The notes under the pieces: model-generated
Databases searched by the model: none
The model's input: the letters and a program-made list of their open reading frames with translations, nothing else
What the model was told of the DNA's origin: nothing
Made by a program: the position numbers and the translations under genes
Shown: positions 1 through 5,814 of the stretch, in pieces
Numbering within the stretch: position 1 is the first letter of the stretch
Layout of the letters: each line of letters starts with the position of its first letter
IMG/VR virus record: IMGVR_UViG_3300045988_000128
Span: 1-5,814 of that record
From: a virus
Strand: one strand, 5' to 3'
DNA length: 5,814 nucleotides

Positions 1-55
1 GAAATGAATATTATGAACTAGGACAGCAAAAACCGTTCGCTTGTATGAGCCTTAA
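1..55. repeat. Direct terminal repeat copy 1 (identical to 5760..5814). It is an assembly signature of a circular genome of about 5,759 bp.
   Basis: 55/55 nt identity between 1..55 and 5760..5814, read directly from the sequence. The repeat may extend further left beyond the window start. Confidence 0.95.
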
Positions 56-335
56 ACCGGGTCTAGGAGATAGATATTACCAAGAGCACAAAGCAGAGAT
101 TTGGAAACAAGGCTACATCCAGTGCACAAACGGAAAGCGCGCACAAATACCACGCTATTATGAAAAAATGATGGAAGCTGAAAACCCACAAAGATTGTGG
201 AGAATTAAGCAGAACAGACAAGCAGCAGCAATAGATACAAACCGTAAAAAATACGAAAACGCAGACTTTGCAGACCAATGCAAGACGAAAGAAAGAGTAA
301 TCAAAAAGCAGATGAAGAAGAAAGGGACACTTTAA
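1..335 (+). CDS. VP4: Replication initiation protein Rep (VP4-like, HUH rolling-circle endonuclease), C-terminal part. It continues from 5075..5814 across the circular junction. The full protein is about 339 aa.
   Basis: Codon phase starts at nt 3 and the stop is TAA at 333..335. The translation ...FACMSLKPGLGDRYY... continues the frame that ends the window (…YVAGYVTKKMYEIDGKKGNEYYELGQQKPFACMSL). The 'MS.KPGLG' block is typical of microvirus Rep C-terminal regions. The tracked ORF 45..335 is only an internal Met within this frame. Confidence 0.88.
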   Translation, partial: NEYYELGQQKPFACMSLKPGLGDRYYQEHKAEIWKQGYIQCTNGKRAQIPRYYEKMMEAENPQRLWRIKQNRQAAAIDTNRKKYENADFADQCKTKERVIKKQMKKKGTL

Positions 336-353
336 CAGTGTCATGGTGTCACC

Positions 354-386
354 TAGCCCAGTACCTATCAAGTAGGCACTGGGCTA
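354..386 (+). other. Long imperfect hairpin immediately downstream of the Rep stop. It is a candidate Rep terminator or structural/origin element.
   Basis: tagcccagt (354-362) pairs with actgggcta (378-386) and ccta (364-367) pairs with tagg (373-376), with one mismatch (363/377) and a 5-nt loop tcaag. There is no downstream T-run. Confidence 0.5.
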
Positions 387-440
387 TATTAGATCAAGCG
401 CCGTATATTATATAACTTGTTGTAGCCGTAGTAGTAGAGA

Positions 441-616
441 CTGTGAAAAAGTTGAAAACAATAAAGATTATCCGTTATCACGTTATTTTTAAGAAAAATT
501 ACTAGTTGAAAGTTTTATTGAAAACTTGTTGAAATGTTGAAAGTTAGTCAAAATGACGAAAAGCATTGTGCAACATTTTGTGGAAAACCTGTTGAAACTG
601 TTGAAACTGTTGAAAA
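441..616 (+). repeat. Iteron-like array of (C)TGTTGAAA(C) direct repeats, ending in three perfect tandem 9-mers CTGTTGAAA at 589..615.
   Basis: TTGAAA cores at 452-457, 506-511, 518-523, 529-534, 537-542, 592-597, 601-606 and 610-615, plus degenerate copies ctgtgaaaaa (441-450) and tgtggaaaac (579-588). Tandem units are 589-597, 598-606 and 607-615. Confidence 0.85.
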
Positions 617-687
617 CGCGCAAGCGCGCAAGGAATGAATTTAGCCGAGCTCCGCGTTCGCTACGCACGGCAAGGCGCTAAAGCGCC
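617..687 (+). promoter_or_regulatory. GC-rich structured island in an otherwise AT-rich intergenic region. It contains a tandem direct repeat CGCGCAAG x2 (617..632), a SacI-type palindrome GAGCTC (647..652) and a GC hairpin ggcgc-taaa-gcgcc (674..687).
   Basis: Seen directly. Local GC is far above the surrounding sequence. The hairpin stem is 5 bp of pure G/C with a 4-nt loop and no T-tract, so it is not a terminator. Confidence 0.5.
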
Positions 688-709
688 ATTCAAGCCAGAA
701 AAATAATTG

Positions 710-738
710 TTGACAAGCAGAAAAAAGAACGCTATAAT
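710..738 (+). promoter_or_regulatory. Sigma70/sigma-A-type promoter with perfect consensus hexamers, driving the zinc-ribbon, peptidase, small-ORF, VP3 and VP1 gene block.
   Basis: TTGACA at 710-715, a 17-nt spacer and TATAAT at 733-738. The predicted TSS is near 745-746. It is followed by RBS AAGGTGGAG (749-757) and ATG at 764. Confidence 0.7.
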
Positions 739-763
739 AGAATCACGAAAGGTGGAGAAAAAC

Positions 764-949
764 ATGAACGAAAAGTCATACAAACACGCCGTCCTAATGA
801 TGCGAATGCCACGAAGTCCGCACCCAGACGGAGACGAACACATTCTAGCATGTCCTAATTGCGGGAGCGGGGAATACCTACTCAATCAGGATGGAGCAGA
901 AAACGCATATTGCGGAAAATGCGGACAGGCCATAGAGTGGAAGGAGTGA
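764..949 (+). CDS. Small Cys4 zinc-ribbon protein (61 aa) of unknown function. It is the first gene after the promoter.
   Basis: ATG 764 lies 6 nt after AAGGTGGAG. The protein is MNEKSYKHAVLMMRMPRSPHPDGDEHILACPNCGSGEYLLNQDGAENAYCGKCGQAIEWKE, with CxxC-x17-CxxC. The tracked ORF start 707 (TTG) overlaps the -35 box and is rejected. The stop is TGA at 947-949. Confidence 0.6.
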   Translation: MNEKSYKHAVLMMRMPRSPHPDGDEHILACPNCGSGEYLLNQDGAENAYCGKCGQAIEWKE

Positions 950-951
950 CT

Positions 952-1344
952 ATGAGCATCGAATGCTATATCATGGACACAGACGCAAACGAAAATGTTG
1001 GAAAATACTTTAAGGTAAAAGAGTTTGCTTGCAAAGACGGAAGTCAAATTGTATTCATTGACGACTACCTATACACCATTCTGGACATCCTAAGAAACAA
1101 GCTGGGAAAACCGGTCATCATCACCAGCGGATACAGAACGCCGGAGTGGAACGCAAAATGCGGAGGAGCAAAATATAGCTACCATATGCGCGGTATGGCT
1201 GCGGACATCCGGGTTAATGGCATGAAACCCAAAGAACTTGCTAACAAACTGAATGGAATTGTCCCGGAAGAATGTGGCATTATCGTATACAAAAGCTGGG
1301 TGCATTTTGATGTGCGCAAAGCAAAATACAGAAAGGGGATATAA
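952..1344 (+). CDS. Peptidase M15 (M15_3/VanY-like zinc D,D- or L,D-peptidase), a putative endolysin. It is 130 aa.
   Basis: ATG 952 lies 5 nt after AAGGAG (941-946). Family-defining motifs are present: F.VKEFAC, SGYRTPEWNAKCGGAKYSYH, the Zn-ligand pattern HMRGMAAD (H-x6-D) and the final His in WVHFDV. The tracked upstream extension (859 TTG) overlaps the previous gene and is rejected. Confidence 0.85.
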   Translation: MSIECYIMDTDANENVGKYFKVKEFACKDGSQIVFIDDYLYTILDILRNKLGKPVIITSGYRTPEWNAKCGGAKYSYHMRGMAADIRVNGMKPKELANKLNGIVPEECGIIVYKSWVHFDVRKAKYRKGI

Positions 1345-1345
1345 A

Positions 1346-1450
1346 ATGGCACTGGTAAGTCTGAAGGACATTAAACAGGCAATCGCAGTAATGCAGAAGA
1401 TTCTCGAAAAACTGGATGAAATCTACCACGCTCTGCACGACAAGGGCTAA
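1346..1450 (+). CDS. Hypothetical small protein (34 aa, predicted helical).
   Basis: ATG 1346 lies 6 nt after AAGGGGA and directly follows the peptidase stop (TAA 1342-1344). The protein is MALVSLKDIKQAIAVMQKILEKLDEIYHALHDKG. It is too short for homology inference. Confidence 0.4.
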   Translation: MALVSLKDIKQAIAVMQKILEKLDEIYHALHDKG

Positions 1451-1465
1451 GAAAGGAGAACAGCA

Positions 1466-1690
1466 ATGATCAAATCATGGAACGTACGCGACCAGACCAA
1501 AGAAGCACTGGAAGAACTTCTAAGACGAAAGTACAAGGAGATTGACGGCAACTACAAAATGTTGAAAAAAATCTCAAACATCAACGATGCAAAGAAGCTG
1601 CTAGATGAAATCTGGGAGATGAAGAGCTTTGCAAACGCAATCGAGATGGAGCTAATCAGAAGGGAGTACAACGATGGCACGACATCGTAA
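1466..1690 (+). CDS. Hypothetical protein (74 aa, helical/coiled-coil-like).
   Basis: ATG 1466 lies 7 nt after AAGGAG (1453-1458). The ORF is intact and I recognise no motif. Confidence 0.5.
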   Translation: MIKSWNVRDQTKEALEELLRRKYKEIDGNYKMLKKISNINDAKKLLDEIWEMKSFANAIEMELIRREYNDGTTS

Positions 1691-1796
1691 GAAGATGAAC
1701 GGCGCAAAAGACCGCCGTATGTTCAACGTAACCGCACGCAAAACCAAAGCTATCAATCTCAGTCAGAAGCCCATGCGTGGTGGCATCCGACTGTAA
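1674..1796 (+). CDS. Small highly basic protein (40 aa), a putative DNA-binding/packaging protein analogous to microvirus J / gokushovirus VP8.
   Basis: ATG 1674 lies 7 nt after AAGGGAG (1660-1666). The protein is MARHRKKMNGAKDRRMFNVTARKTKAINLSQKPMRGGIRL, with 13 of 40 residues Arg/Lys. It overlaps the 3' end of the previous ORF by 17 nt. It is absent from the ORF track because of the size cutoff. Confidence 0.6.
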   Translation: MARHRKKMNGAKDRRMFNVTARKTKAINLSQKPMRGGIRL

Positions 1797-1814
1797 GAGA
1801 AAAGGAGCAAAACA

Positions 1815-2054
1815 ATGAAACACAACTACTACGGAATCTGGGACAGTGTGGCAAAGTGCTACGCATGGGTCGGTGAAAGCAAGAACGATGCAACCTTTGC
1901 ACGTATGTGCAATGTGATGGAAAAGGACGAAAAAACCTTCATTGGGCAGAGTCCGCAGGACTACACCGGCTTCAAGTTGGCAATCTTTGAAGACGAAAAC
2001 GGAACGTTTACGAACGACACGGAAAAAGTATGGGAGGGCAAGCCGAATGAATAA
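1815..2054 (+). CDS. Hypothetical protein (79 aa).
   Basis: ATG 1815 lies 7 nt after AAGGAG (1802-1807). The protein is MKHNYYGIWDSVAKCYAWVGESKNDATFARMC.... Its stop overlaps the next start (ATGAATAA). The pattern resembles a small conserved microvirus ORF, but that is recollection only. Confidence 0.5.
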   Translation: MKHNYYGIWDSVAKCYAWVGESKNDATFARMCNVMEKDEKTFIGQSPQDYTGFKLAIFEDENGTFTNDTEKVWEGKPNE

Positions 2055-2454
2055 ACGATACGAGGAAGGGCGAGAGCCCTTCTTTTCGAATACAGGCGAG
2101 AACGAACGAAAGCAGTACGTCTGGGCAAAAGACGAAAACGGCAAAGAATACCTTCAAGAGACAGCGCCTATCGACATTCAGGCTGAAATCGAAAGCTATG
2201 CAGACGAGTGCGATATTAAAAACATCGTGCGGAAAGCAAGTTTCGACCCGGAATTTCTGAAGAACCTGTCACAAGGCGCATTAACCACAGAGGAAACACC
2301 GCTCGTAGACATCACGGAATTCCCGCAGAATATCCACGAGTATCACCAGATGATAGCAACGGCACAAGCAAAAGCAATGCAGCTGGCAAAGCTACAGGAG
2401 ATGGCAAAAACAGAGCCTAAACCGAAAACCGAAGCAAAGGAGGAAGAACAGTGA
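2047..2454 (+). CDS. VP3: Putative internal scaffolding protein (VP3-like), 135 aa, with an acidic Lys/Glu-rich C-terminus.
   Basis: ATG 2047 follows GGGAGGG (2031-2037). It sits immediately upstream of VP1 and overlaps it. The motif ...YADECDIKNIVRKASF... resembles the conserved D-I-N-x-I block of gokushovirus VP3 scaffold proteins. The tracked start 1942 lies inside the previous gene and is rejected. Confidence 0.6.
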   Translation: MNKRYEEGREPFFSNTGENERKQYVWAKDENGKEYLQETAPIDIQAEIESYADECDIKNIVRKASFDPEFLKNLSQGALTTEETPLVDITEFPQNIHEYHQMIATAQAKAMQLAKLQEMAKTEPKPKTEAKEEEQ

Positions 2455-4145
2455 ACAGAAACAACGAAAGACACTTTCTGAATGTGCCACAGATGCACAC
2501 AAGCAGAACGCGTTTCAACCGTGACCAGACGATTTTGACCACGTTCGACAGCGGCAAGCTTATCCCGTTTTTCGTGGACGAAGTGCTACCGGGCGACACT
2601 TTCCAAGTCGACACAAGCGCTATCATCCGAATGACCACGCCAAAGTATCCGGTCATGGATGATGCATTCATAGACTTCTACTACTTCTATTGTCCAAACA
2701 GAATCTTGTATGATGACTTCAAGTATTTCATGGGAGAAGTAGAAGACAAGCCATGGGTACCGAGCAAAGAATACAAAATGCCGCAAATAGTATGTTTTGG
2801 AAATGAAGCAGAACCACAGCCACTCGAAAAAAGCATTCTGGACTATATGGGAGTGCCAACAAAAATCAAAAAACAATTTAGCATAAACGCACTGCCAGTG
2901 CGAGCCTATGTAAGAATCTGGAATGAATACTTCAGAGATGAAAACGTAGACAACAAAGCAACGCTAGTAACGGCTGGATTAGATCAAGCATACAGAGACA
3001 CAAACAAAGATGAAGACCTAGACAAAATCCTTGAAGAAGCACACGAAGGCGGACGGTGCCTACCTGTAAACAAGTTCCATGACTACTTCACAAGCTGTCT
3101 GCCATATCCGCAAAGAGGGCCGGAAATTTCATTACCGTTAACAGGAAATGCAGCGGTAAACCTGTTTACAGACCAAGAGCTAACAGAAAAAATGTCAACG
3201 GGTATCGATGGCGAAATCTACCTGAACAGCACAGTAACAGGAAACAACACATCGGTACCGAGGATGTTAAACTGGCCAACCGCGTCAAACACCTCACATC
3301 CGGTTCTAGTAAACGGAGCACCAAGCGATACAGACGCAAGCAAGTACCGCGCAGGATTCTTAGGTGCAGACCTGGCAAGTGTAACCGCAACAACAATCAA
3401 CGACTTGCGAAATGCTGTTGCAGTACAGCAGTATTACGAAGCACTAGCGCGTGGTGGCAGCAGATACCGCGAACAGGTACAGTCACTGTGGAACGTCACA
3501 ATCAGCGACAAAACGGTACAGATTCCTGAATATTTGGGCGGTGGACGCTATCACGTCAACATGAATCAGATTATCCAGACCAGCGGACAGCAGAGCAACA
3601 CAGATACACCCATCGGCGAAACTGGCGCAATGTCAGTAACGCCGGTAAATGAAAGCAGTTTCACAAAATCGTTCGAAGAGCACGGCTTTGTAATCGGTGT
3701 GATGTGTATTCGTCATAACCACAGCTACCAGCAGGGACTTGAACGTTTCTGGAGCAGAAAAGACAGGCTCGACTACTACGTGCCGCAGTTTGCAAACCTT
3801 GGCGAACAGCCTGTAAAGAAAAAGGAAATCATGCTGACCGGTGACGCATCAGACGAAGAAACTTTCGGCTATCAGGAAGCATGGGCAGACTACCGGATGA
3901 AACCAAACCGTGTAAGCGGACTTATGAGAAGCAACGCAACGGGAACGCTGGATTTCTGGCATTATGCAGACAACTATTCAGCAGTGCCGACACTGTCACA
4001 AGGCTGGATGGTAGAAGGAAAGAGCGAAATTGCAAGAACGCTCATCGTTCAAGACGAACCGCAGTTCTTCGGAGCAATCCGAGTAGCAAACAAAACTACC
4101 CGCTGTATGCCGTTGTACAGTGTACCGGGGCTGAACAAATTGTAA
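2451..4145 (+). CDS. VP1: Major capsid protein VP1 (phiX174 F-protein homologue), 564 aa.
   Basis: GTG start 2451 lies 6 nt after AAGGAGGA (2437-2444), in a GTGA overlap with the VP3 stop. The N-terminus MNRNNERHFLNVPQ...RTRFNRDQTILTTFDSGKLIPFFVDEVLPGDTF matches the highly conserved microvirus VP1 N-terminal signature. A long uninterrupted ORF ends at TAA 4143-4145. An alternative start at ATG 2493 would lose the conserved N-terminus. Confidence 0.92.
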   Translation: MNRNNERHFLNVPQMHTSRTRFNRDQTILTTFDSGKLIPFFVDEVLPGDTFQVDTSAIIRMTTPKYPVMDDAFIDFYYFYCPNRILYDDFKYFMGEVEDKPWVPSKEYKMPQIVCFGNEAEPQPLEKSILDYMGVPTKIKKQFSINALPVRAYVRIWNEYFRDENVDNKATLVTAGLDQAYRDTNKDEDLDKILEEAHEGGRCLPVNKFHDYFTSCLPYPQRGPEISLPLTGNAAVNLFTDQELTEKMSTGIDGEIYLNSTVTGNNTSVPRMLNWPTASNTSHPVLVNGAPSDTDASKYRAGFLGADLASVTATTINDLRNAVAVQQYYEALARGGSRYREQVQSLWNVTISDKTVQIPEYLGGGRYHVNMNQIIQTSGQQSNTDTPIGETGAMSVTPVNESSFTKSFEEHGFVIGVMCIRHNHSYQQGLERFWSRKDRLDYYVPQFANLGEQPVKKKEIMLTGDASDEETFGYQEAWADYRMKPNRVSGLMRSNATGTLDFWHYADNYSAVPTLSQGWMVEGKSEIARTLIVQDEPQFFGAIRVANKTTRCMPLYSVPGLNKL

Positions 4146-4156
4146 GAAAGGAGGAA

Positions 4157-4182
4157 GCCCGGGCAAAACCCGGGCTATTTTT
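4157..4182 (+). terminator. Rho-independent terminator or attenuator between VP1 and VP2.
   Basis: gcccggg (4157-4163), loop caaaa, cccgggc (4169-4175), then tattttt (4176-4182). The stem is GC-rich and perfect, 7 bp (8 bp with the flanking A-T pair). Confidence 0.7.
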
Positions 4183-4184
4183 AA

Positions 4185-5078
4185 ATGTCAATACTAGGAG
4201 CAATCGGAGCAGCCGGAAAAGCAGTAGGTGGATGGCTTGCAAGTAATCCACAAGTAGTAACAAGCGCACTGACGTTAGCAGGGAAAGGACTATCAAGCCA
4301 ATTCGGGCAAACGTCAGACAGCCAAAGCAGCGGATGGAATCAAAGCCAAAGCCAAGGCGCTGGCACAAGCTCGTCAAGCAGCGAGGGCGGCACAAACGAC
4401 AAGCAAATCATGGAATACCTAGATAAGTTCTATAGTTGGCAAGGCGGGCAGAACGCTTTCCAAAGCAAAACAAACCGGCAAAATATGCTTATGCAGATGG
4501 GCTACAACACGCTAGGAGCAATCCAGCAAGGCGTATATAACGCAATTGAACGAAACACGGCAATGCAGTACAACAGCGCAGAAGCACTTGCAAACAGGAA
4601 CTTTCAAGAGCGCATGAGCAGTACGGCATACCAAAGAGCTGTAGAAGATATGCGGAAAGCCGGACTTAACCCTATCCTGGCATACGCAAACGGCGGTGCA
4701 AGCACACCGGGCGGCTCAGGAGCAACAATCACAGGTGCAAGTATGGGTATGCCATCAGCAAGCGCACTGGGCGTATCTACAATGAATGGAAATGTGCCAA
4801 ACAGTTATTACAGCCGGTCAGAAAGTCAGGCACAATGGTATCAGCTTGCAGAAGCCGTGGGAAGTCAGCTAAGCACAAGCCACAGCAGCCCAACAGCACT
4901 TGTAAACGACCTGTTAAAAACATACAAAGCCATGGAAAAGACGGAAGATACCGTACCGGGAGCAGCCGGGGGCGGTGGACGAAACAAACCGAAAACAGGA
5001 GAAAGCAGAGAAATGAAGCCACAAAACAAAACGGGAAATTATGGAGAAAAAAGAAAGCCAGGTGATTATTTAAGGTGA
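4185..5078 (+). CDS. VP2: Minor capsid / DNA pilot protein VP2 (phiX174 H-like), 297 aa.
   Basis: It is the first codon after the in-frame stop at 4182-4184. The N-terminus is glycine-rich and hydrophobic (MSILGAIGAAGKAVGGWLAS). There is a Ser/Gln/Gly low-complexity linker and the conserved block NFQERMSSTAYQRAVEDMRKAGLNPILAY typical of gokushovirus-type VP2. The SD (AAAGGAGGA 4147-4155) lies upstream of the terminator hairpin. Confidence 0.85.
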   Translation: MSILGAIGAAGKAVGGWLASNPQVVTSALTLAGKGLSSQFGQTSDSQSSGWNQSQSQGAGTSSSSSEGGTNDKQIMEYLDKFYSWQGGQNAFQSKTNRQNMLMQMGYNTLGAIQQGVYNAIERNTAMQYNSAEALANRNFQERMSSTAYQRAVEDMRKAGLNPILAYANGGASTPGGSGATITGASMGMPSASALGVSTMNGNVPNSYYSRSESQAQWYQLAEAVGSQLSTSHSSPTALVNDLLKTYKAMEKTEDTVPGAAGGGGRNKPKTGESREMKPQNKTGNYGEKRKPGDYLR

Positions 5079-5814
5079 GTTGTTACAAGCCACTAATTAG
5101 GCTGTACAATCCCGAAAACAAAGAAATAAGCGGGCGGGTGTATTCACTCGCCCGCTTTTCAGAATTATCGGGGAGACAGCTAAAATATGAAGATTTGATG
5201 TACAGAAAAGACATCATGTTGATACCATGCGGGCAATGTATAGGATGCAGAATCAGGCAACGTGAAGACTGGACAACACGCATAGAATTAGAAGCTAGAG
5301 ACTATCCGAAAGAAGAAGTATGGTTTATTACACTAACCTATGATGACGACCATGTACCGGGAATGATAGTTAAGACAGGCGAAATAATGCGAAAGGTACA
5401 ATACGTCTGGAAACCGGGTGAAGAGCGTCCTGAAAGCGTCCAAACGTTACTGTATACTGACGTTCAGAAGTTCTTAAAACGTCTCAGAAAGGCTTACAGG
5501 GGCAAATTACGCTATTTCGTAGCAGGAGAATACGGAGAGCAAACAGCAAGACCGCATTACCACATGATACTGTACGGATGGCAACCGACAGACCTAGAGA
5601 ACCTATACAAGATATACCACAACGGATACTATACAAGCAAATGGCTGGCAGAACTATGGGGCATGGGTCAAATACAGATAGCACAAGCAGTACCAGAAAC
5701 ATATAGATACGTTGCAGGGTATGTAACCAAAAAAATGTATGAAATAGACGGAAAGAAGGGAAATGAATATTATGAACTAGGACAGCAAAAACCGTTCGCT
5801 TGTATGAGCCTTAA
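5075..5814 (+). CDS. VP4: Replication initiation protein Rep (VP4-like, HUH endonuclease), N-terminal part. It is truncated by window linearisation and continues at 1..335.
   Basis: GTG 5075 lies 9 nt after AGGTGA (5060-5065), in a GTGA overlap with the VP2 stop (TGA 5076-5078). The in-frame stop at 5063-5065 excludes any earlier start. The translation is MSCYKPLIRLYNPENK...PCGQCIGCRIRQ...WFITLTYDD (motif 1)...ARPHYHMILYG (HUH motif 2)...YRYVAGYVTKK (catalytic Tyr motif 3). The alternative ATG 5198 would delete the conserved N-terminus. Confidence 0.9.
   Translation, partial: MSCYKPLIRLYNPENKEISGRVYSLARFSELSGRQLKYEDLMYRKDIMLIPCGQCIGCRIRQREDWTTRIELEARDYPKEEVWFITLTYDDDHVPGMIVKTGEIMRKVQYVWKPGEERPESVQTLLYTDVQKFLKRLRKAYRGKLRYFVAGEYGEQTARPHYHMILYGWQPTDLENLYKIYHNGYYTSKWLAELWGMGQIQIAQAVPETYRYVAGYVTKKMYEIDGKKGNEYYELGQQKPFACMSL
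5760..5814. repeat. Direct terminal repeat copy 2 (identical to 1..55).
   Basis: Exact 55-nt identity with the window start, verified base by base. Confidence 0.95.

Follow-up and report, generated by a model that had tools for sequence, protein, structure and literature searches.

A circular genome from a gut gokushovirus clade carries a rare zinc-ribbon gene and a hairpin resembling the phiX174 origin

Introduction

The gokushovirus isolates Chp2 (Chlamydiamicrovirus) and phiMH2K (Bdellovibrio) have genomes of 4.56-4.59 kb, the genes of Chp2 being arranged in the order VP1-VP2-VP3-ORF8-VP4-VP5. A VP1-VP2-VP4 core order is found in nearly all genomes of the suborder containing Gokushovirinae (Kirchberger 2022, PMC9239249), unlike in Pichovirinae, where the three core genes are rearranged (Roux 2012, PMC3394797). 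For gut gokushoviruses, an M15 peptidase has been described, tied to Faecalibacterium and proposed to be an endolysin (Roux et al. 2012, PLoS One 7:e40418, PMC3394797), and in the current view the uptake of foreign genes is "limited to peptidases and methyltransferases" (Kirchberger 2022, PMC9239249). Here, we describe a stretch of 5,814 nucleotides (nt) of viral DNA (IMG/VR record IMGVR_UViG_3300045988_000128, positions 1 to 5,814; hereafter, the window), which very probably corresponds to the complete circular genome, of 5,759 nt, of an uncultured gokushovirus (Microviridae, Gokushovirinae) from an abundant clade of the pig and human gut, linearised by the assembler inside rep, the gene for VP4/Rep. 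As a genome it is ordinary, being a new species-level member of a crowded and already known gut clade. Beyond the ordinary are a rare zinc-ribbon cargo gene together with the slot that it occupies, a twofold pointer to a Faecalibacterium-type host, and the clade-wide inversion of a hairpin that resembles the origin of phiX174.

A circular genome linearised inside rep

The two ends of the window, 1-55 and 5760-5814, form an exact direct repeat of 55 nt (100% identical, start-to-start spacing of 5759) that cuts through the Rep reading frame, as an earlier note on this DNA had claimed. A chance match is rejected because no comparable repeat exists elsewhere: besides this pair, no repeat longer than 30 nt at 70% identity is present in the window. 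When one copy is removed and the ends are closed, a unit of 5,759 nt is obtained, within the size of about 4.3-6.3 kb expected for a small circular genome of Microviridae or Gokushovirinae. Across the closed junction, the Rep open reading frame (ORF; 5075..5759 + 1..335) runs as a single frame of 339 amino acids (aa), and the repeat encodes ...EYYELGQQKPFACMSLK, internal to Rep. This circularised protein aligns with VP4 of MT135277 over 339 of 339 residues with 92% identity and 0 gaps, and the MT135277 gene is uninterrupted and lies in the middle of its record. Also, a full-length Rep is observed in 80 IMG/VR contigs that have different breakpoints. The placement of the Rep N-terminus at the 3' end of the window and of its C-terminus at the 5' end, in a continuous frame, therefore holds.

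Moreover, the European Nucleotide Archive (ENA) contig L093 (ERZ28621845, scaffold_4430, 5,772 nt) is 100% identical to the circularised unit, although it begins at unit position 5421 and overlaps itself at the ends by only 13 nt; a 135-mer that spans the junction is found inside it. The largest default k-mer of SPAdes-type assemblers is 55 nt, so that an overlap of this length is the signature of a de Bruijn graph with k = 55. For this reason, the "terminal redundancy" is a technical overlap of the circle and not a biological repeat: positions 1..55 are an assembly overlap that duplicates 5760-5814, L093 reads through the junction, and the true genome is 1-5759, circularised. The earlier view of a whole circular Microviridae genome of about 5,759 bp is in agreement with the repeat, with the 339-aa Rep and with this readthrough, and a chimeric repeat, which would have undone it, is not what a contig with another breakpoint spanning the junction indicates.

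In an alternative view, the circle would have arisen during assembly, through a chimeric join, the collapse of a concatemer or the mis-assembly of related strains, and the true molecule would be different or incomplete. Some points favour this view: an overlap of 55 nt is what an assembler leaves and not something biological, the very high strain richness and mosaicism of the clade favour chimeras, and related contigs of 8.8-10.9 kb (L017, L036) suggest that concatemer assemblies occur. Nonetheless, Rep is colinear and gap-free over the junction with dozens of independent genomes, the identity with L093 holds over 5,772 nt with the same unit length of 5,759 nt in spite of the other breakpoint, each expected gene is present once only, and the length falls inside the clade range of about 5.1-6.2 kb. 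An artefact is, in consequence, extremely improbable. As for the long contigs themselves, L017 (8,781 nt), L036 (10,917 nt) and L046 (10,711 nt) have approximately 1.5-2 times the genome length and are possibly concatemeric or chimeric assemblies.

It is also very improbable that the genome is a prophage, or a piece of a larger mobile element, instead of a free lytic phage. Some gokushoviruses integrate via dif-like sites (Kirchberger and Ochman 2020, PMC7062461), and the conserved intergenic region described below could conceal such a site. However, Rep relatives are absent from 185,579 genomes (one per species), the 231 IMG/VR relatives all lie on virus-sized contigs, mostly of 5-6 kb, and no conserved XerC-arm-like sequence adjoins the AT-rich motif, the flank of which varies among relatives. 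A dif/Xer site beside TATATAACTTG was accordingly rejected, its would-be XerC-arm flank not being conserved among the relatives.

Two points weigh against the reading as a free, complete single-stranded DNA (ssDNA) phage genome: L093 may come from the same sample as the window, being then an independent assembly and not independent biology, and neither the ssDNA state of the virion nor the packaged strand is readable from an assembly. At the level of the genome, nothing was found that contradicts it.

Placement within Gokushovirinae and comparison with relatives

The data support placement in Gokushovirinae and not in Pichovirinae. The best VP1 matches are records named 'Human gut gokushovirus', 'Gokushovirus WZ-2015a' and 'Gokushovirinae sp.' (72-74% aa identity), and both VP1 and Rep show the similarity to Microviridae that the earlier note had proposed to check. 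VP1 is at most 74% identical to any GenBank phage record, 36-37% identical to the Chp2 and phiMH2K proteins and 32% identical to that of SpV4, its nearest records having been classified as Gokushovirinae by their depositors; the Rep protein is 27-33% identical to those of the isolates Chp2, phiMH2K and SpV4. The gokushovirus-specific families Chlamy_scaf and Phage_ORF5 are present, and the core order in the window is VP1-VP2-VP4, without the rearrangement of Pichovirinae and with gokushoviruses as the nearest relatives.

A megablast search returned 29 GenBank phage records, all of them gut Microviridae or Gokushovirinae (pig, human, monkey), the best with 72% coverage and 84% identity, whereas IMG/VR holds 231 contigs with a Rep of at least 88% identity. 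The nearest genome, L020 (IMG/VR UViG_3300045988_000102), shows 94% coverage, 86.5% nucleotide identity and 85% identity in VP1. Because nucleotide identity is at most 86.5% and that of VP1 at most 85%, the window is a distinct species-level genome. It adds one more such entry to a clade with hundreds of assembled genomes, which has cataloguing value and is not surprising. The clade is mosaic, with Rep at 88-93% throughout and VP1 at 60-91%. The VP2 proteins of the relatives (VP2 at 4185-5078 in the window) fall into two allele classes, of approximately 50-62% and 76-95% identity, the distribution of which does not follow the similarity of Rep or VP1, in line with recombination and with the hypervariable region published for the pilot protein.

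The close relatives are the pig and human gut gokushoviruses MT135277 (Gokushovirinae sp.), MG945334 and MG945162 (Microviridae sp., pig faeces), KX513877 and KX513868 (Human gut gokushovirus), KT264791 (Gokushovirus WZ-2015a) and L020. These share with the window the order Rep, intergenic region, promoter, (cargo), M15, small ORFs, ORF8, VP5, VP3, VP1, VP2, a Rep of 88-93% aa identity, the conserved intergenic region, the hairpin, the promoter and the VP1-VP2 terminator. They differ in that the zinc-ribbon cargo gene occurs only in the window, in the identical L093 and in the fragment L009, and in that most of them have, between hairpin and repeat module, a long tract of alternating CG that is almost absent from the window. 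Chp2 and phiMH2K, on the other hand, have homologous VP1, Rep, VP2 core, VP3, VP5 and ORF8, but their smaller genomes lack the M15 peptidase and the cargo slot, and their order differs, with VP3 after VP2 and Rep after ORF8. The earlier claim of a gene content deviating from textbook gokushoviruses stands then in part: the order does differ from that of isolates such as Chp2, but it is normal for the clade. Likewise, in the accessory block that was taken as the deviation, only the zinc-ribbon gene is unusual; the M15 peptidase is already known, being clade-wide (same position in approximately 84 of 89 relatives, and annotated in several GenBank relatives) and published in 2012.

A conserved hairpin as candidate origin

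phiX174 and gokushovirus Rep proteins are homologous HUH/YxxxY enzymes. In phiX174 (Bullavirinae), the RefSeq annotation places the 'origin of viral strand synthesis' at nt 4306, the A, in the sequence CAACTTG↓ATATTAATAAC (the arrow marks the nick), within gene A and outside any hairpin loop. In the window, the same core is found in the loop of a gokushovirus hairpin element (346..386, - strand), which reads TAGCCCAGTGCC / TACTTGAT / AGGTACTGGGC followed by TAGGTGACACC, the gokushovirus loop carrying ACTTGAT(A/G). The hairpin proper (354-386) begins 19 nt past the Rep stop codon, and the candidate cleavage sequence on the - strand of the window is CCTACTTGATAGG / GCCTACTTGATAGGT. Differently from phiX174, this candidate origin is intergenic, sits on a covarying stem and adjoins a palindromic GGTGWCACC box. 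The loop is invariant in 75 sequences, with compensatory changes of the stem in 14.

Hairpins of this kind are also found in the isolates. In Chp2, a 14-bp hairpin in the VP3-ORF8 intergenic region has another stem, the loop TCTACTTGATC and the flank TAGGTGA (coding strand; L191, 2903-2950), and SpV4 has a hairpin with the loop ATTACTTGTTATA, on the coding strand as well. The Chp2 element thus shares with the window the loop TACTTGAT and the flank GGTGA, but it lies on the coding strand upstream of Rep, whereas that of the window lies on the opposite strand, directly downstream of Rep. For a broader comparison, a diverse set of 80 gokushovirus genomes from many environments, with a Rep 37-50% identical to that of Chp2, was oriented by Rep. 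Of these 80 genomes, 44 contain a hairpin with a stem of at least 8 bp and ACTTG in its loop. The best copy is on the coding strand in all 44, 2 of which also have a weak hairpin of 8 pairs on the opposite strand. In 35 of the 44 this best copy is non-coding, in 40 it lies within 700 nt upstream of Rep, and its consensus is ...GCACAGTTAC-(C/T)TACTTGAT-GTAACTGTGC-TAGGTGACACC. Shuffled genomes yield such a hairpin 4% of the time. When the full element is defined as ACTTGAT, 8-20 nt and then GGTGACACC with at most one mismatch, 42 genomes of the diverse set have it on the + strand and none on the - strand, while among 104 Rep-oriented genomes of the wider clade of the window (Rep 57-93%) it is found in 102 on the - strand and in none on the + strand. 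With regard to the diverse set (L221-L304), one of the 80 contigs has VP1 on the strand opposite to Rep.

Since the stems covary, the loop and flank are fixed and the clade keeps the reverse complement, the element appears to be recognised at the level of DNA and in one particular strand, for which the obvious candidate is the homologous HUH Rep, a member in the window of the Pfam family REP_ORF2-G2P. From the conservation of the element and its match to phiX174, Rep, as a rolling-circle endonuclease of the HUH/YxxxY type, would target the hairpin at 346-386 and nick the core ACTTG↓AT. Our tentative proposal, possible although doubtful as a whole, is that Rep nicks the hairpin (loop TACTTG↓AT, flank GGTGACACC) and that this site, a homologue of the phiX174 origin, marks the strand to be displaced and packaged, in which case the clade would package the strand complementary to its mRNA. 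If true, this would be a negative-sense lineage within a family assumed to be uniformly positive-sense, and it would coincide with a promoter-proximal cargo slot that takes in genes from dsDNA phages of Gram-positive gut bacteria and with a module of 209 nt kept in either orientation. The hairpin offers a concrete and testable candidate for the viral-strand origin of Gokushovirinae, and its inversion in the clade raises the possibility of antisense packaging. Against a role as origin weigh the 36-38 of the 80 diverse genomes, together with phiMH2K, in which no copy of the hairpin is detectable.

Another explanation would be that the hairpin is merely a rho-independent terminator of the operon, or an element of RNA stability, unrelated to replication. 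Its position 3' of the Rep stop codon and the TTTTGT or ATTGTC that follows it in many relatives agree with this, and other microviruses have conserved intergenic hairpins of unproven function (Olo Ndela 2022, PMC9865509). Nevertheless, a terminator has no need of an invariant loop, and here the loop and the 3' flank GGTGACACC remain unchanged under freely covarying stems, in genomes that range from Chp2 to those of the gut and the environment. Moreover, Chp2 and most genomes have no T-run after the element, which lies upstream of Rep in them; the reverse complement kept by the window clade preserves a motif of the DNA strand and not one of RNA; and the loop equals the annotated nick site of phiX174. 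A role restricted to termination is thus unlikely, although on the + strand the hairpin may in addition serve as a terminator after Rep.

Strand composition was considered as a marker of the packaged strand and rejected. At 4-fold degenerate sites, the coding strand of the window has 50% A and 12% T, versus 49% T in Chp2 and 65% T in SpV4, an extreme and mirror-image asymmetry that seemed to follow the strand of the hairpin. However, the element is on the coding strand in 19 genomes that are A-rich, as is the cultured phiMH2K, and for these reasons the marker was dropped; across the diverse set, AT skew does not track the orientation of the element. In an exact 16-mer scan of IMG/VR for the hairpin, matches on large contigs were disregarded, as a rough estimate puts them at chance level.

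The zinc-ribbon gene and its cargo slot

The zinc-ribbon ORF (764..949, + strand; 61 aa, CPNC...CGKC; ribosome binding site GGTGGAG) is a rare accessory gene in a promoter-proximal cargo slot. No tblastn match to it was found among 50,697 phage records, only 2 clusters among 5.8 billion contain homologues, and it is absent from 88 relatives with the exception of L009, a 1.4-kb fragment of a sister microvirus, where the homologue has 97% aa identity and the same context. The second homologue is the C-terminal half of an 87-aa protein on L010, a contig that is not from a microvirus. At the nucleotide level, positions 798-945 of the window are 81% identical to L010 1511-1658 and to L011 593-740. 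The genes of L010 match PHROG families of unknown function, and the gene adjoining the zinc-ribbon homologue encodes a protein 58% identical to one of the Faecalibacterium phage FP_Brigit. This DNA match to a phage-like contig is evidence, by sequence comparison, of recent gene capture by a microvirus.

With regard to its family, all zinc-ribbon profiles score under their cut-offs (PF08271, 25.1 against 29 bits; PF14354, 19.4 against 28.6 bits; NF047912, 20.3 against 37 bits), and PADLOC returned no match for the ORF. Matches in the PDB are to generic ribbons such as those of eS31 and TFIIB, and the AlphaFold model is of low confidence (predicted local distance difference test, 62). This supports a generic CxxC...CxxC ribbon and not membership in the Lar, TFIIB-type or eS31-type groups.

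The slot (701-951) lies between the conserved promoter and the M15 gene and was compared in 77 relatives. Its length goes from a minimum of 71-78 nt, which comprises the promoter and the ribosome binding site, up to 615 nt, and in approximately half of the relatives it holds one to three small ORFs of 30-132 aa. These belong to at least 15 unrelated families (18 BLAST groups, some of doubtful ORFs), none with a known function. The position right after the promoter is a cargo slot, and the zinc-ribbon gene that occupies it here was probably acquired from a pool of genes similar to the one of Faecalibacterium phages. The zinc-ribbon match and the at least 15 slot families show that the clade takes up foreign genes more freely than in the view of Kirchberger 2022. 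An identification of the slot with the 'defensive hypervariable regions' of Kirchberger 2021 was rejected, those regions concerning VP2.

The M15 peptidase, lysis and the probable host

The zinc peptidase of the M15_3 family (952..1344, + strand; 130 aa) scores 79.7 bits with PF08291 against a curated cut-off of 23.2 (2e-22) and matches the endolysin family phrog_894 (4e-43), which makes it a candidate endolysin. It has the motifs S-Y-H-M-R-G-M-A-A-D and, later, W-V-H-F-D. The stretch SYHMRGMAAD aligns with SRHMYGHAAD of 1LBU and provides the first His and the Asp among the zinc ligands (two of three), whereas the third ligand, a His, is put at WVHFD by motif alone, outside the aligned 1LBU stretch. 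The best match outside microviruses is the endolysin of the Faecalibacterium phage FP_Toutatis (42.5%). As in the M15_3 proteins of gut Microviridae (Roux 2012), we are dealing with a horizontally acquired PF08291 domain with its closest kin in Faecalibacterium and its phages; the window differs in nothing in kind and is one more example.

Following the proposal of Roux 2012, the M15 peptidase would be the lysis enzyme, where other microviruses use a protein E of the phiX type. Some observations weigh against it. The M15 protein has no signal peptide that would take it to the cell wall. In a search for hydrophobic 19-mers (mean hydropathy of at least 1.6) in every + strand frame, no ORF showed a transmembrane-like segment, and thus no holin-like protein was found; the many hydrophobic matches on the - strand are a by-product of the A-rich + strand. 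As a consequence, the lysis mechanism is incomplete, and in spite of the phrog_894 match, none of the export routes of an endolysin class (holin, signal peptide or signal-anchor-release domain) is present. Directly 3' of the M15 gene, a small ORF of 34 aa (1346..1450, + strand), kept in nearly all relatives with 62-91% identity, is predicted to form an amphipathic helix, rather than a membrane-spanning one, and could be an accessory protein of lysis. Next to it is an ORF of 74 aa (1466..1690, + strand), common to most members of the clade. Profile searches matched no family for either of the two.

The host is probably a Clostridia/Oscillospiraceae bacterium such as Faecalibacterium, this being a weak inference from the gene pool. 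The pointers are the L010 neighbour gene with its similarity to FP_Brigit and the affinity of M15 to the FP_Toutatis endolysin, the latter being the same affinity as in Roux 2012. The neighbour of the zinc-ribbon homologue and M15 point independently to Faecalibacterium-type hosts, which bears on whether gokushoviruses infect Gram-positive bacteria. Counting against the assignment, the 185,579 species' genomes yield no relative of the window Rep.

Promoter, terminators and the repeat module

The non-coding region of 428 nt between the Rep stop codon and the zinc-ribbon ORF (336-763) is as conserved as the genes. It contains the main promoter, TTGACA-17-TATAAT (710..738, + strand), which matches the sigma-70/sigma-A consensus at 12 of 12 positions and is present at the same place, within one mismatch per hexamer, in 63 of 77 relatives. 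Gene order and signals are those of an operon, although the activity of the signals is inferred: this one strong sigma-A/sigma-70 promoter would drive zinc-ribbon, M15, orf34, orf74, ORF8, VP5, VP3, VP1, an attenuator, VP2 and Rep. Between VP1 and VP2, a GC-rich hairpin that resembles an intrinsic terminator is found (4156..4186, + strand; AGCCCGGG-CAAAA-CCCGGGCT and then ATTTTT). This hairpin (4156-4176 plus the T-run) persists, with compensatory changes in the stem, in 11 of the 19 relatives in which its anchor was found, and is likely the attenuator.

The same intergenic region holds a conserved non-coding module of 209 nt (405..615, + strand), which comprises TATATAACTTGTTGTAG..GTAGTAGTAG and seven GTTGAAA repeats (451-615). 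In the whole window, GTTGAAA occurs in 9 copies, against 1.1 expected. In 8 of 89 relatives (L005, L009, L038, L053, L054, L067, L068 and L069), the whole module is inverted between GC-rich quasi-palindromic tracts, both flanks keeping their orientation. A module tree places the inverted copies in a monophyletic group, which suggests a single, old and persisting inversion, either orientation being tolerated. The GTTGAAA repeats were considered as promoters and rejected, as no acceptable -10 box is found at the right spacing. Also rejected was the ORF at 553-681, annotated as a hypothetical protein in some GenBank relatives, since its frame is shifted by indels between relatives, two of which have ATA in place of its ATG; the variable repeat positions, moreover, fall on its first codon positions.

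On the + strand, the module motif is TATAACTTGTTGTAGC. The sequence TAACTTGTTGTAG (413-425, + strand), at least 95% conserved in the clade, lies inside the invertible module but outside any hairpin. It is similar to the canonical origin core ACTTGATGTAAC and to the loop of the SpV4 hairpin, ATTACTTGTTATA, and is a possible second Rep site. As the hairpin and module motifs would share a strand in the eight inverted genomes, at most one of the two motifs would be an active nick site. Finally, most relatives have, between the hairpin and the module, an alternating CG/CA tract (CGCGCGCACGCGCG...) of 45-110 nt, followed in some of them by a conserved CCCCTTCCCC...GGGG stretch. The window (387-404) and L020 are without nearly all of this tract.

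Gene set and remaining features

All genes lie on the + strand, which has 36% A and 18% T, in the circular order VP1, VP2, VP4/Rep, zinc-ribbon ORF, M15, 34-aa ORF, 74-aa ORF, ORF8, VP5, VP3. They are tightly coupled or overlapping, and nearly all have a strong Shine-Dalgarno sequence. The set of VP1, VP2, VP3 and a J-like gene on a single strand, as described in the earlier note, agrees with the Pfam and PHROG matches. By homology, VP1, VP2, VP3, VP5 and ORF8 would build and fill the capsid as in gokushoviruses of the Chp2 type.

The N-terminal 246 codons of VP4/Rep (5075..5814, + strand; PF23343, 3.5e-18; phrog_942, 1.4e-108) contain the HUH (RPHYHMILY) and YxxxY (YVAGYVTKK) motifs, with HYHMILY and YVAGYVTKK in invariant columns common to Chp2 and phiMH2K, as in an HUH Rep. 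The start codon is a GTG that overlaps the VP2 stop (GTGA), and 24 of 88 relatives also start with GTG. Past the assembly overlap, the frame resumes at base 56 and the C-terminal part (1..335, + strand), included in the gap-free match to MT135277 VP4, ends with the stop codon at 333-335.

Upstream of VP1, ORF8 (1674..1796, + strand; phrog_10695, 1e-11) encodes a J-like basic peptide of 40 aa that ends in PMRGGIRL and is presumed to condense and package DNA. The C-terminal MRGGIR[LF] is common to p10 of phiMH2K, annotated as similar to phiX174 J, and to ORF8 of Chp2. ORF8 is not a member of Pfam Microvir_J; its length, charge and C-terminal motif are those of phiMH2K p10 and Chp2 ORF8. It is followed by VP5 (1815..2054, + strand; 79 aa; PF20577 Phage_ORF5, 2e-9; phrog_1670, 1e-17) and by the internal scaffolding protein VP3 (2047..2454, + strand; 135 aa from the ATG at 2047; PF09675 Chlamy_scaf, 5e-11; phrog_24309, 3e-73), the phrog_24309 match covering residues 36-170 of a longer VP3 ORF. 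The major capsid protein VP1 (2451..4145, + strand; 564 aa; PF02305, 1e-134; phrog_514, 2e-196) starts with a GTG that overlaps the VP3 stop, preceded by the ribosome binding site AAGGAGG. Its PF02305 match spans the whole profile, as in an F-type capsid protein, and 3,559 microvirus records were matched. The DNA pilot protein VP2 (4185..5078, + strand; 297 aa) corresponds to phrog_8742 (4e-106). In the Pfam scan, no ORF of the window matched the phiX D, G, E or J families, and a gokushovirus set of VP2, VP3, VP5 and ORF8 is present, without D, G and E genes of the phiX type.

No tRNA was found in the window, and an Rfam match to Termite-leu RNA inside Rep (5125-5210; 29.2 bits against a gathering score of 51, E = 0.0025) was judged to be due to chance. 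Finally, a very basic ORF of 76 aa (4835-5065, + strand) overlaps the 3' end of VP2 in an alternative frame and could be either overprinted or a mere effect of composition; at the equivalent place, MG945334 has an annotated 'hypothetical protein'.

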